A stretch of DNA of 64,000 nucleotides from Candidatus Heimdallarchaeota archaeon (GTDB taxonomy: Archaea; Asgardarchaeota; Heimdallarchaeia; Heimdallarchaeales; Heimdallarchaeaceae): assembly GCA_021399345.1 (NCBI GenBank), contig JAAFKI010000045.1, positions 160,001 through 224,000 on the forward strand, written 5' to 3'. The position numbers and the translations under genes were made by a program. The notes beneath the pieces were generated by a model. That model did no database searches. It saw only the letters and a program-made list of their open reading frames with translations, and had not been told where the DNA came from. Positions 17,878-21,046 of the stretch are shown here, piece after piece (positions within the stretch are counted from its first letter, which is position 1; every line of letters begins with the position of its first letter).

Positions 17878-18717
17878 TTAAGCCAGAAAAGCTGCTAGTA
17901 ACCACGAAATTGCTATGATAATTACAGCAACCACATTCAGAACAGCATATAGATTGGATGTTTCTTCATTGTAAATGTGATTAACATCTCTTACTATTTC
18001 ATTCAATTTTGTATCAATAGATTCAAGAATGTCTTTACCTTCTCCTCCTTCAGTAAACTGTTCAGTTGAGGTGCTTAAAACATCAATAAATCCATGTAAC
18101 ATTTTTTTGTCAACTTCAAGCAAAGTAGGCGATGTAATTGTATGCAGTTTTTCGTGTAACCGTTTAACTTCTTCTAAAGTTAACTGTGGTATTTCCCATT
18201 TTATATTAAATTCAACTAAATTTGCTAGATGAGTGGTTAAATTATCATAATATATTCCAAAAGGTATGGCCTTGTAATCTAATTCATTAACCAATCTAAA
18301 GAATTTTATTTCTAAATCCTCTTGTTTTGATGATTTATAATATTTCGAAGGGTCAACAACCAATGCTACAGCTTGAGGGAATAGGTTCTGATAGGTTCTT
18401 TGAGTTCCTTTATCTGTTCCTGAGAGGAAGCAACCATATGAAGGATGAGTATGAGCCCAACCAACAATGGTTTCATCCTTATCCCTTTTGTACAAATCTT
18501 CAACAATCTGAACCAGAGCTTCATCACTAAGAACTACATATGTTGATGTTTGTTCTTGTCTTCCAGTATCAAAATCAGTAATTACTAATGTTCCCTCATC
18601 ATTAACATAACCTAACAATAAACCCGCTGATTCTTTTGATTTATCTAACGAATCAACTGCTAGCATCTTAGCTAAAACATATGCGGAAATTAGAATCTCC
18701 TTTTTTGAGTGAGTCAT
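17878..18717 (-). CDS. JAMM/MPN+ metalloprotease (Rpn11-like) with C-terminal transmembrane anchor
   Basis: ESAGLLLG...GWAHTHPSYGCFLSGTD, ALVVDP; ends LYAVLNVVAVIIIAISWLLAAFLA. Confidence 0.88.
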   Translation of the reverse strand: MTHSKKEILISAYVLAKMLAVDSLDKSKESAGLLLGYVNDEGTLVITDFDTGRQEQTSTYVVLSDEALVQIVEDLYKRDKDETIVGWAHTHPSYGCFLSGTDKGTQRTYQNLFPQAVALVVDPSKYYKSSKQEDLEIKFFRLVNELDYKAIPFGIYYDNLTTHLANLVEFNIKWEIPQLTLEEVKRLHEKLHTITSPTLLEVDKKMLHGFIDVLSTSTEQFTEGGEGKDILESIDTKLNEIVRDVNHIYNEETSNLYAVLNVVAVIIIAISWLLAAFLA

Positions 18718-18765
18718 CTCTCAAATATCCATTGTTTTCGTCTATAAAATATTTACCCTTCCCTT

Positions 18766-19812
18766 TCATATAAAACTATTGATTTCCTTTCCTATAGGTT
18801 GCTCTGTCAGGAAATAGTAAGCGAAATCTTTGAGAAGTTCAATATTTGGATTGTCAGCAGGTAAATTTTGGACTGTGGTTTTATCCAATATATCCATTAA
18901 TGCCCAGATTGCCAAGAATAGGTCTAGAGGAAATCCTTTTGGATAGAGTGTTTCCAACGGTTGAGAGTTTATTTCTCTCAAGTGTACACTGTATCCCAAA
19001 ATGAACTGTTTGATGTCTTCTATGGTGACAGGGATTCCTTTTGATTCTCTATATTCAAGAAATGCTTGTCTCCCGAAAAATGTACCAATATCTTCAAACC
19101 TATCAAATGCCCCTTGCATCCAAAAAGTTGGATCTATGAGAGCTATGTTTAATACTTCGTTCTGAGGAGAAGCTCTAATCATAAGATTACTCTGATGAAA
19201 ATCTCCAAAAGCATCACTTCCACCTTGTGATGAGGATATCATTTCTAGTAAGATTCTTGATTTATCCATTATCTCATGCTCATTTGTTTGACCACCAAAA
19301 ATGGCTAGAACAAGTCTTCGATATAGTTCTTCATAAATGTCTATCATTACAGGACGAGGTTTTCCTTCATGAATTATAGATAAAACATATCCACCCCAGA
19401 AACTCTTATCGTTTACATCATGAGCATCCTCATAATTAATACCTGTAACTCCTTCATAAGCAATGAAAGTTGGAGATTTTAAGTTCACATAGATGTATCG
19501 AGGAATTTTAACAACTGATCTAGTTGAAAACTTTTTCTCCAAAAAAGAAGAATTTCTGATTTCAGTAATAACTTCTGTAGGACTTTCCATGAATTTAATT
19601 GCTAGTTTAGTTTTATGGTTTCCTAATTCAGAACTATAAAAAACATCAATAACATAAACATCACCAAACCTTCCACTTGCCTTATGATATTCAATATCAT
19701 TTATTTTAACTTCTAAAATATCTTTTCCAAATTCTCCGCGTGCTTCATCAATTAAATAATACGAGAAGGAACTGACAAGCTGAATTAATAGAGGTTTGAG
19801 TGATTCACTCAT
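18766..19812 (-). CDS. Protein kinase-like (APH/phosphotransferase) family protein
   Basis: GRFGDVY, AIKF, GDFHQSN, IDP, DRFEDIGTFF. Confidence 0.75.
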   Translation of the reverse strand: MSESLKPLLIQLVSSFSYYLIDEARGEFGKDILEVKINDIEYHKASGRFGDVYVIDVFYSSELGNHKTKLAIKFMESPTEVITEIRNSSFLEKKFSTRSVVKIPRYIYVNLKSPTFIAYEGVTGINYEDAHDVNDKSFWGGYVLSIIHEGKPRPVMIDIYEELYRRLVLAIFGGQTNEHEIMDKSRILLEMISSSQGGSDAFGDFHQSNLMIRASPQNEVLNIALIDPTFWMQGAFDRFEDIGTFFGRQAFLEYRESKGIPVTIEDIKQFILGYSVHLREINSQPLETLYPKGFPLDLFLAIWALMDILDKTTVQNLPADNPNIELLKDFAYYFLTEQPIGKEINSFI

Positions 19813-20026: not shown

Positions 20027-21046
20027 ATGAATAACGAAGAAGATTCAAATGAAATGCTAGATTGGAACAAAAAAAATGTTACAAGATTTGCTCAATTTTT
20101 GTATGATTTAGCTAAAGAAAGAGTTCAAACAGATAGAGATACAACAGAATCTACAGAGGAGGACGAAGTTGTTGAAGAATTGATTCAATTAAATGAATCT
20201 TTAGAACAAGAGTTACTTGATGAGCCTCTAGACACACAGAAAGTTGAGGAAGAGATTTTTGAAGAAGAAGATCTAGAAGTTGAAGGAAATTTAGAGCAAG
20301 AATTAGAGGAAGTAACAATTGGATTAGCTAAAGCTGTTTCTGGAGAAGATGTAGGAGAAATTGATGTTAGTGATGAAGAAGAGATTAAGGAAATAATAGA
20401 AAAAGAGCAAATACCTATTCCTTCTGAGAATATTACAATTTCTACTGAAGTTACATTACAAAAAGAAATACTTGAGACACAAGCAAGTATAGAACAAGTC
20501 CAGGAATTCGAAATAGAACAACAGATTGAAGAGCTAGAATCTGTAGATCTCTCGCAACCTATTGTTACTGATCCAGTTATCAATAAGGAAGTTTTTGTGC
20601 AACCCGAAAACATACCTATAGATATTCATAATTTAGTTTTTGTTGAAGAAGCTACAAGTATCCCAATTACTAAAGATGAAATGACAATTACAGATAGTGC
20701 CCAAGAGGCAGAGATTGCCCAAGAGGCAGAGATTGCCCAAGAGGCAGAGATTGCCCAAGAGGCAGAGATTGCCCAAGAGATAGAAGTAATTCAGGAACCA
20801 ATTGCTGAAACTGATTTAGATTTTGAAGCTTCCAGTCGAAGACAAAAAATAATTGATAGCATGTTAGCAGAAACTAAGAAACGAGAAGATGAAGAAGGTT
20901 TCAAAGTAAGAGAACTAGGTGAAACCGAAGGTCGAGCTTATTCTGCTGTTGTCTTCGGAAATGAATCTAATAGGAATATCAAAAAATGGAGAAGATGGGA
21001 GAAAAGAAGATTAAAGGAAGAAAAGAAGAAACGAAAAAGAAAATAG
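20027..21046 (+). CDS. Highly acidic low-complexity protein with basic C-terminal tail
   Basis: Glu-rich throughout; AQEAEI repeats; ends KKWRRWEKRRLKEEKKKRKRK. Confidence 0.7.
   Translation: MNNEEDSNEMLDWNKKNVTRFAQFLYDLAKERVQTDRDTTESTEEDEVVEELIQLNESLEQELLDEPLDTQKVEEEIFEEEDLEVEGNLEQELEEVTIGLAKAVSGEDVGEIDVSDEEEIKEIIEKEQIPIPSENITISTEVTLQKEILETQASIEQVQEFEIEQQIEELESVDLSQPIVTDPVINKEVFVQPENIPIDIHNLVFVEEATSIPITKDEMTITDSAQEAEIAQEAEIAQEAEIAQEAEIAQEIEVIQEPIAETDLDFEASSRRQKIIDSMLAETKKREDEEGFKVRELGETEGRAYSAVVFGNESNRNIKKWRRWEKRRLKEEKKKRKRK
20699..20779 (+). repeat. Perfect 18-bp coding tandem repeat (GCCCAAGAGGCAGAGATT x4.5)
   Basis: Four identical units plus 9 bp; encodes (AQEAEI)4-AQE. Confidence 0.97.

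Follow-up and report, generated by a model that had tools for sequence, protein, structure and literature searches.

A putative tail-anchored, Rpn11-like JAMM deubiquitinase conserved across most Asgard classes

Introduction

The origin of the eukaryotic ubiquitin system is at present best studied in Asgard archaea, whose ESCRT modules have been found to bind ubiquitin. Among the eukaryotic enzymes that remove ubiquitin close to membranes, AMSH is a soluble protein that depends on its MIT domain and on STAM for recruitment, while USP19 of animals is a tail-anchored deubiquitinase of the endoplasmic reticulum and belongs to the cysteine proteases with the USP fold. Inactive scaffolds are also common among eukaryotic MPN proteins, for example Rpn8, CSN6 and eIF3f/h.

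The archaeal JAMM enzyme CsRpn11 of Caldiarchaeum subterraneum is a proven hydrolase of ubiquitin precursors and conjugates (PMC6043591). It is a 202-aa protein without the Ins-2 insertion, its crystal structure was solved at full length, and a membrane is not mentioned in the paper; many other prokaryotic JAMMs serve non-ubiquitin roles (PMC6043591). In the published work on Asgard ubiquitin and ESCRT genes, the JAMM deubiquitinase figures as a soluble component of the ubiquitin operon.

Here we analyse a gene from a Candidatus Heimdallarchaeota archaeon, located in a 64,000-nucleotide stretch of contig JAAFKI010000045.1 (hereafter the window). Its product, referred to as TA-JAMM, combines an Rpn11-like catalytic domain with a helical stalk and a predicted transmembrane helix at the extreme C-terminus. 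Features of the locus, and of a second JAMM gene of the same genome, are collected in Table 1.

Table 1. Coordinates and basis of the features discussed in the text (window positions unless a contig is named)
Feature	Position	Strand	Details	Basis
TA-JAMM, whole gene	17878..18717	(-)	279 aa; stop codon 17878-17880	ORF listing and translation
TA-JAMM, JAB/MPN+ catalytic domain	18250..18705	(-)	residues 5-156	Pfam, phmmer against the PDB, Foldseek
TA-JAMM, codon of putative catalytic Glu29	18631..18633	(-)	glutamate of the JAMM motif	invariant in alignments A1 and A2
TA-JAMM, zinc-binding and catalytic motif	18412..18453	(-)	H89-T-H91-x7-S99-x2-D102	invariant in alignments A1, A2 and A3
TA-JAMM, predicted helical stalk/linker	17953..18249	(-)	residues 157-255	AlphaFold2 model, low to medium confidence
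TA-JAMM, predicted C-terminal transmembrane tail anchor	17881..17952	(-)	residues 256-279, no residue after	hydropathy
Spacer between kinase-fold gene and JAMM gene	18718..18765	(-)	48 bp	read directly from the sequence
Kinase-fold gene (APH/choline kinase type)	18766..19812	(-)	348 aa; no Pfam match	AlphaFold2 and Foldseek
Soluble operon JAMM of the same genome	contig C136, L003:8054-8773		239 aa, MPN+, intact motif, N-terminal extension, no transmembrane helix	

Results

Catalytic domain and its nearest relatives

TA-JAMM matched the Pfam JAB family PF01398 over residues 5-114 with 58.7 bits and an E-value of 6.1e-16, the curated cut-off of this family being 22.5 bits; Prok-JAB was a second, weaker match. 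An earlier note on this DNA had described an intact Rpn11-like motif of the form E...HTH-x7-S-x2-D, and all of its residues are indeed present, namely E29 followed by H89-T-H91-PSYGCFL-S99-GT-D102. The motif string quoted there, GWYHSHPGFGCWLS, turned out to be Rpn11's own sequence, and the gene itself encodes GWAHTHPSYGCFLSGTD. The five residues E29, H89, H91, S99 and D102 are invariant among 32 members of the TA-JAMM family (alignment A1) and among 26 sequences from across the Asgard phylum (alignment A2). AlphaFold2, given the 32 family members as input alignment, modelled the core confidently from residue 8 to residue 156. By its profile match, its complete motif and its modelled MPN fold, TA-JAMM is thus a member of the JAMM/MPN+ class, and it would be expected to act as a zinc-dependent isopeptidase.

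When TA-JAMM was compared with the PDB by phmmer, the best match was CsRpn11 (6FJU/6FJV, E 4.7e-24), which shares 35-37% identity with the core. Eukaryotic Rpn11/PSMD14 (8.7e-18) and CSN5 (4e-14) came next, and AMSH (about 2e-11) and BRCC36 (1.7e-3) were weaker. The Foldseek ranking of the structural model agreed with the sequence ranking, and CsRpn11 and Rpn11 were both retrieved with a probability of 1.0 and target-normalised TM scores of 0.75-0.84. Similarly, the nearest clusters in a shape search of the ESM Atlas were eukaryotic Rpn11, aligned to residues 2-235 with a TM score of 0.59. The Rpn11-like nature of the catalytic domain, as proposed earlier, is therefore borne out by sequence and by fold. 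Residues from about 46 to 70 align to CsRpn11 without a gap and many of these positions are invariant, the label Ins-1 for this segment being our own placement; no Ins-2 insertion is visible in the core aligned to CsRpn11.

Domains and partners of the eukaryotic complexes were also searched for. TA-JAMM did not match RPN11_C (PF23594) at E <=0.01, whereas eukaryotic Rpn11 representatives do, and neither a CSN5_C nor an MIT domain was found in it by Pfam. The genome, which is 88.6% complete, yielded no MPN- partner of the Rpn8 kind and no PCI lid subunit, and both of its JAB genes are MPN+.

Stalk and C-terminal hydrophobic helix

The region behind the core was modelled with pLDDT values of 39-76 and comprises helices at residues 159-167, 181-193, 201-216 and from 226 onward. 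The last of these continues as a single unbroken helix through residue 278 in the AlphaFold2 model, so that it includes both stalk and tail. The stalk string given in the earlier note, ILESIDTKLNEIVRDVNHIY, was located at residues 231-250, and the stalk sequence is conserved within the Heimdallarchaeaceae. Neither Pfam nor an ESM Atlas feature search with residues 157-279 returned anything usable for stalk and tail.

A terminal hydrophobic helix of about 23 aa with nothing behind it had likewise been noted before. The last 24 residues (256-279) read LYAVLNVVAVIIIAISWLLAAFLA, are uncharged and are followed immediately by the stop codon. A Kyte-Doolittle mean of 2.68 over 19 residues (KD19) marks the tail as a transmembrane helix by hydropathy, as had been anticipated. 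Y257, N261 and W272 are invariant within alignment A1. The N-terminus of the protein is helix 1 of the MPN fold. With one predicted transmembrane helix at its C-terminus and no signal peptide, TA-JAMM is a fit to the tail-anchored layout as far as its sequence tells, and it would be inserted into the membrane with its N-terminus inside. Such proteins are infrequent in this genome: by the same criteria, 24 of 2287 ORFs (1.05%) of at least 150 aa carry a single C-terminal hydrophobic helix. It should be pointed out that the hydropathy rule mis-flagged one eukaryotic Rpn11-like sequence (P0163) as tail-bearing, with a KD19 of 1.92.

Conservation of the tail across Asgard archaea

A collection of 5.8 billion proteins contained 47 homologues of TA-JAMM, nearly all of them 277-294 aa long at full coverage and, where full-length, labelled Heimdallarchaeota, Heimdallarchaeaceae or Heimdallarchaeum. 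Every full-length homologue, at identities from 53% to 98%, has the same helix as its very last segment. In a profile search of 1.84 billion representatives, most of the next-best matches (210-300 aa) also carried a terminal hydrophobic helix.

The same was seen at the level of genomes. In a scan of 400 Asgard genomes, all 30 genomes of the family to which the window belongs had a full-length orthologue, and clear orthologues (E 1e-24 to 1e-47) were found in most other Asgard families. ORFs cut from representative genomes carried the tail in nearly all of those families. A scan of named species genomes, for which the broad alignment A2 was too divergent and a narrower one was used, gave 57 archaeal loci, under titles that include Heimdallarchaeota, Ca. 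Heimdallarchaeum, Freyarchaeota, Jordarchaeia, Odinarchaeota, Hermodarchaeota, Baldrarchaeum, Thorarchaeota and Promethearchaeota as well as a few evidently mislabelled MAGs. All 57 encode proteins of 218-312 aa with an intact motif and one C-terminal hydrophobic helix. Their tails have KD19 values of 2.0-3.25 (median 2.77) and uncharged runs with a median of 24 residues, the chain ends 0-11 residues past the helix, and elsewhere the 19-residue mean stays below 1.6 in all 57. Conservation of the transmembrane helix in Asgard homologues, which the earlier note had proposed as a check, thus holds for every full-length homologue and for 57/57 archaeal relatives. Neither of the outcomes named there as refuting, a helix that is not predicted or one that homologues lack, was obtained, the prediction being by hydropathy.

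Linkers vary from roughly 40 to 130 aa across Asgards, and the sequences of linker and tail diverge between classes. A layout that is kept while its sequence diverges is the pattern that selection for architecture, not for a motif, would be expected to leave. On these alignments the same predicted tail-anchored layout is kept in most Asgard classes; it is nearly pan-Asgard and no local oddity.

Soluble relatives were found as well, among them those from bacteria (Planctomycetota and others, with E about 1e-12). Of five closed genomes searched in three Asgard families (f19, f20 and f5), the four whose JAB ORFs were examined carry 3-7 JAB genes each, all of them soluble; in these closed genomes the best match to TA-JAMM was the JAMM of a Ub-E1-E2-JAMM-RING operon. 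Because these four genomes possess a ubiquitin operon but only soluble JAB proteins, the anchor is dispensable for a working system.

Phylogeny of JAMM cores

A quick maximum-likelihood tree was built from 94 JAMM cores over 160 columns. Operon JAMMs, the paralogues of f19 and f20 and the soluble proteins of f5 split from all others with an SH-aLRT of 93, and the soluble operon JAMM of the window's genome groups with the operon JAMMs of these three families. The tail-anchored proteins form a clade of the Heimdall order (96, starred) and a large clade of most other classes (87). Three soluble proteins (L065, L066 and L069) are nested among the tail-anchored ones and look like secondary losses of the tail in this tree. 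The clade of eukaryotic Rpn11 and CSN5 (100, starred) and the small operon JAMMs join the same unresolved polytomy as the tail-anchored groups, and the eukaryotes are not placed inside the tail-anchored group.

The ubiquitin system in this genome and in the phylum

The genome contains exactly two JAB genes, and that of TA-JAMM lies outside the ubiquitin operon. The operon on contig C136 has the order E2-JAMM-membrane RING-Ub-E1, with the ubiquitin-like gene and E1 a few genes downstream; its RING protein is a multi-pass membrane protein of 357 aa with a C-terminal RING finger. The operon JAMM is less Rpn11-like than TA-JAMM, with E-values of 2e-10 vs 5e-24 to CsRpn11 and 3e-9 vs 9e-18 to Rpn11. 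Small soluble JAMMs of 140-149 aa occur in compact ubiquitin operons of two other Asgard families, and the small operon JAMMs of other Asgards match TA-JAMM at 1e-27 vs 1e-11 for the operon paralogue.

A second ubiquitin is encoded on contig C123. It has 78 aa and ends in KGG-L, one residue beyond the di-glycine. Its module includes an E1-like protein and a UEV/E2-Vps23-Vps28 fusion and adjoins ESCRT-II, two ESCRT-III genes and Vps4; no JAMM gene was found in this ESCRT-ubiquitin cluster. A Get3/ArsA homologue is also present in the genome (3.7e-81), a family that was likewise matched in 14 of 14 control genomes.

Across the 400 Asgard genomes, the JAB profile was found in 294 and E2 in 296, with agreement family by family. 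The families without E2 (f8, f22, f23, f25, f30 and nearly all of f24) also lack JAB, both are likewise missing from most of the last three Asgard groups, and no family with a tail-anchored JAMM is without E2. Two Odin genomes (97-98% complete) and one Baldr genome contain E2 together with a single JAB gene, the tail-anchored one. Because the genomes are related and the counts cover all JAB types, including those without a tail anchor, we treat the co-occurrence as a supportive pattern rather than a statistical test.

Gene neighbourhood and the kinase-fold partner

The neighbours of TA-JAMM in the window are a kinase-fold gene, directly upstream on the same strand, and cofE and folP (Pfam). 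In the spacer before the JAMM gene, about 25-35 nt ahead of the ATG, there is an A/T-rich, TATA-like sequence, ATATTTTATAGA, so that the JAMM gene may in addition be served by a promoter of its own. A scan for sigma-70 promoters and terminators gave nothing above shuffled sequences and is uninformative for an archaeon.

Relatives at 76, 65, 60 and 53% identity keep the kinase-JAMM pair side by side on one strand, even those in which the downstream cofE-folP pair is inverted. Over the Heimdall order, the kinase-fold family was found near the tail-anchored gene in 12 loci, with JAMM identity down to about 30%. The two genes are adjacent and co-oriented in most of the loci examined; in two loci, L091 and L093, they are separated by a T2SSE-type ATPase gene, and L091 also has its kinase-fold gene on the opposite strand.

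A sequence profile built from the kinase-fold protein did not lead to any solved relative, and the protein was placed by fold search alone. Its AlphaFold2 model (pLDDT 87) retrieved PsiK, macrolide and aminoglycoside phosphotransferases, MTR kinase and choline kinase by Foldseek with E-values of 1e-7 to 4e-9. K73, D204, N209 and D227 are invariant in the family, and we take these positions to be the catalytic lysine, the catalytic loop and the metal-binding aspartate of APH enzymes. Judged from the model, the protein is probably an active kinase. It may have a role together with TA-JAMM, perhaps a regulatory one; its likeness to small-molecule kinases is not an obvious fit for a deubiquitinase.

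Other lineages have other neighbours. In Frey, Jord and Odin genomes, proteins of 410 aa and 255 aa are encoded upstream of the tail-anchored gene. They were considered as remote kinase-fold relatives and rejected (hhalign probability <1%), and no homologue of either was found in the window's genome. In a group labelled Hermod/Thor, a convergent Roadblock/LC7 gene lies downstream. Ubiquitin, E1, E2 and RING genes were absent from the examined flanks of tail-anchored genes in every lineage, and the idea that the gene is an operon member in other lineages was dropped. The link of TA-JAMM to ubiquitin therefore rests on homology and co-occurrence.

Discussion

We consider TA-JAMM to be best read as a membrane-tethered, cytoplasm-facing deubiquitinase of the Rpn11/CsRpn11 kind with a C-terminal tail anchor, with a probability of about 0.6. 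The earlier reading of a membrane-integral, deubiquitinase-like enzyme is thus supported by sequence and model. The single transmembrane helix and the helical stalk would hold the MPN+ domain at the cytoplasmic face of the membrane, where the enzyme would remove ubiquitin from proteins. Ubiquitin is the presumed substrate and membrane cargo the presumed target: candidates are the targets of the multi-pass RING ligase of this genome and the cargo of its ubiquitin-binding ESCRT-I/II module. TA-JAMM may in addition process precursors of ubiquitin, the ESCRT-linked one ending in KGG-L among them, and its insertion into the membrane could perhaps proceed via the Get3/ArsA homologue. It would form the membrane-bound half of a pair with the soluble operon JAMM, and would be the sole JAMM deubiquitinase where no paralogue exists.

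The most serious alternative concerns the substrate. TA-JAMM might be an anchored JAMM peptidase acting on a non-ubiquitin target, either a SAMP, Urm1 or ThiS-like modifier or a peptide bond outside any modifier, in which case the kinase-fold partner would point to a small-molecule or lipid-linked pathway. Its gene lies in neither of the two ubiquitin gene clusters, its conserved neighbour has the fold of a small-molecule kinase, and non-ubiquitin roles are documented for many prokaryotic JAMMs (PMC6043591). However, the nearest characterised relative over the core is an enzyme that processes ubiquitin, the presence of JAB follows that of E2 family by family down to its absence from families without E2, and the tail-anchored gene is the sole JAB gene in the checked Odin and Baldr genomes that have E2. 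We therefore regard a non-ubiquitin target as unlikely, though it deserves more weight than the other rival explanations. The tail itself could instead be buried in an assembly, as are the C-terminal helices by which Rpn11 and CSN5 are locked into the helical bundles of their complexes, and TA-JAMM would then be a soluble complex subunit. Alignments of full-length Rpn11 and CSN5 with the model do span about 260-300 columns, albeit with high rmsd, the ESM Atlas Rpn11 cluster reaches well into the stalk, and P0163 shows that a eukaryotic Rpn11-like sequence can be wrongly called tail-bearing. But the Asgard tails are far more hydrophobic, with long uncharged runs, and always sit at the extreme C-terminus; between classes their hydrophobicity is kept and their sequence is not, which is the look of a lipid-facing helix. 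Together with the missing RPN11_C match and the lack of an MPN- partner or lid subunit in the genome, this makes a buried helix quite improbable.

Two further explanations carry still less weight. Since inactive scaffolds are frequent among eukaryotic MPN proteins, TA-JAMM could in principle be a catalytically silent scaffold that binds ubiquitin without cleaving it; this was rejected because the five catalytic residues are conserved phylum-wide, which is the signature of an active MPN+ enzyme, and we hold it to be very improbable. The slightest chance of all is given to an artefact of assembly or gene calling, by which the tail would have arisen from a frameshift or from fusion to an adjacent ORF. 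It is refuted by the conservation of the tail, as the same frame and tail recur in dozens of independent assemblies, closed Heimdallarchaeum chromosomes included.

The proteins themselves are already in databases, under names such as 'Mov34/MPN/PAD-1 family' and 'proteasome lid subunit RPN8/RPN11'. No description of a membrane anchor on an Asgard JAMM was found in the searchable literature, the coverage of which is incomplete but includes the main Asgard ubiquitin-ESCRT papers. What is new here is the tail anchor on a putative JAMM deubiquitinase, kept in most classes of Asgards. As the tail-anchored layout occurs in most of these classes, much Asgard ubiquitin removal probably takes place on a membrane. 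Should membrane tethering hold for the Rpn11-like enzyme that is most widespread in Asgards, then ubiquitin removal was linked to membranes before there were eukaryotes, and ubiquitin signalling probably was as well; the multi-pass RING ligases and the ubiquitin-binding ESCRT modules point the same way.

The tail-anchored JAMM also offers a testable idea on how Rpn11 and CSN5 came by their C-terminal helices. More speculatively, the ancestral Asgard ubiquitin system might have operated at the membrane with a tail-anchored enzyme as its principal Rpn11-like deubiquitinase; soluble Rpn11 and CSN5 would then have descended from it by losing the transmembrane helix, the stalk helices being reused as the C-terminal helices that dock onto the lid and the signalosome. 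We put this forward as a long shot.

Comparison with known systems

Within the same genome, the operon JAMM, also MPN+ and intact in its motif, is a paralogue of TA-JAMM that presumably serves the same ubiquitin system. Unlike TA-JAMM, it has an N-terminal extension and no transmembrane helix, and its gene stands between those for E2 and the membrane RING protein.

Among eukaryotic enzymes, Rpn11/PSMD14 and CSN5 resemble TA-JAMM in that C-terminal helices follow an MPN+ core. They are, however, soluble complex subunits without a membrane span, and TA-JAMM carries neither RPN11_C nor CSN5_C. AMSH (STAMBP) is a JAMM deubiquitinase that works at the membrane beside ESCRT, and its likeness to TA-JAMM is one of functional analogy: TA-JAMM has no MIT domain, matches AMSH less well than it matches CsRpn11, and would contact the membrane directly through its transmembrane helix. 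USP19 and TA-JAMM share the design of a cytoplasm-facing deubiquitinase, putative in the latter, with a C-terminal anchor; as their folds are unrelated, the likeness is of convergent architecture only.

CsRpn11 (PDB 6FJU, 6FJV and 6FNN; PMC6043591) remains the best match of TA-JAMM in both sequence and fold, with an identical JAMM motif, no Ins-2 insertion and short helices after the core. The solubility that the earlier note had assumed for its comparators holds for this 202-aa enzyme (PMC6043591), which is encoded inside a Ub/E1/E2/RING operon, whereas the 279-aa TA-JAMM is encoded outside such an operon and adds to the common core a stalk of about 100 aa and a predicted terminal transmembrane helix.

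Genes adjacent to the tail-anchored JAMM

The kinase-fold gene lies upstream of the gene for the tail-anchored JAMM, the Rpn11-like protein that ends in a transmembrane (TM) helix. A confident model gave its product an APH/choline-kinase-type kinase fold, the catalytic-type residues were invariant, and in the searches made here matches to this family were confined to the Heimdall order. The very acidic protein encoded divergently from this pair contains tandem AQEAEI repeats followed by a lysine/arginine-rich C-terminus, and Pfam returned no family for it.

Other genes accompany the tail-anchored JAMM in other Asgard classes. A Roadblock/LC7-domain protein was found directly downstream, in convergent orientation, at L118 and at 16 similar loci of the Hermod/Thor-labelled group. 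Genes of this kind are common among Asgards, so this proximity may be coincidental. In Frey, Jord and Odin genomes, two proteins were observed upstream on the same strand; neither has a Pfam family, neither has a homologue in the source genome, and a relationship of either to the kinase-fold partner was ruled out.

Two public MAGs with the tail-anchored gene (loci L098 and L123) are titled Bathyarchaeia and Thermoproteota. They correspond to genomes (G090 and G115) that are assigned to the class and phylum of the window, and the two records are probably mislabelled.

Locations of the features described in this section
Feature	Location	Strand	Remarks
Kinase-fold protein, 348 aa	window 18766-19812	-	no Pfam family
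Very acidic protein, 339 aa	window 20027-21046	+	divergent from the kinase-JAMM pair
Roadblock/LC7-domain protein	L118:3772-4470		
Upstream proteins, ~410 aa and ~255 aa	L094:869-2098 and L094:2102-2866		also at L096, L108, L133, L138
RING E3 of ubiquitin operon, 357 aa	L003:8796-9869, source genome contig C136		multi-pass membrane protein
Second ubiquitin, 78 aa	L191:15526-15762, source genome contig C123		C-terminus KGG-L
Neighbours of second ubiquitin	L191:8367-15386		
Soluble JAB paralogues of genome G188, group f20	L166, L175, L179, L181, L184		

Ubiquitin loci of the source genome

The C-terminal part of the RING E3 in the ubiquitin operon forms a RING-H2-like finger, and homologues of this membrane protein occupy the equivalent operon position in Asgard genome groups f19 and f20. 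The second ubiquitin is linked to ESCRT genes; its neighbours comprise an E1-like gene, a UEV/E2-Vps23-Vps28 fusion, ESCRT-II, two ESCRT-III genes and Vps4, and JAMM is absent within this cluster. With its leucine after the KGG, this ubiquitin would need C-terminal trimming.

Other architectures among the JAMM relatives

A second membrane architecture was seen in seven matches from the representative library (P0106, P0115, P0125, P0143, P0146, P0155 and P0165). There, an N-terminal JAMM domain precedes a single TM helix near residues 170-190, and a large C-terminal region of 250-570 aa, presumably extracellular, comes after it.

Where the tail-anchored form was missing from the genomes examined, each had 4-7 soluble JAB paralogues. 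Several of these are 400-530 aa proteins with long C-terminal extensions, and they may be adaptor-recruited substitutes for the tail-anchored form.
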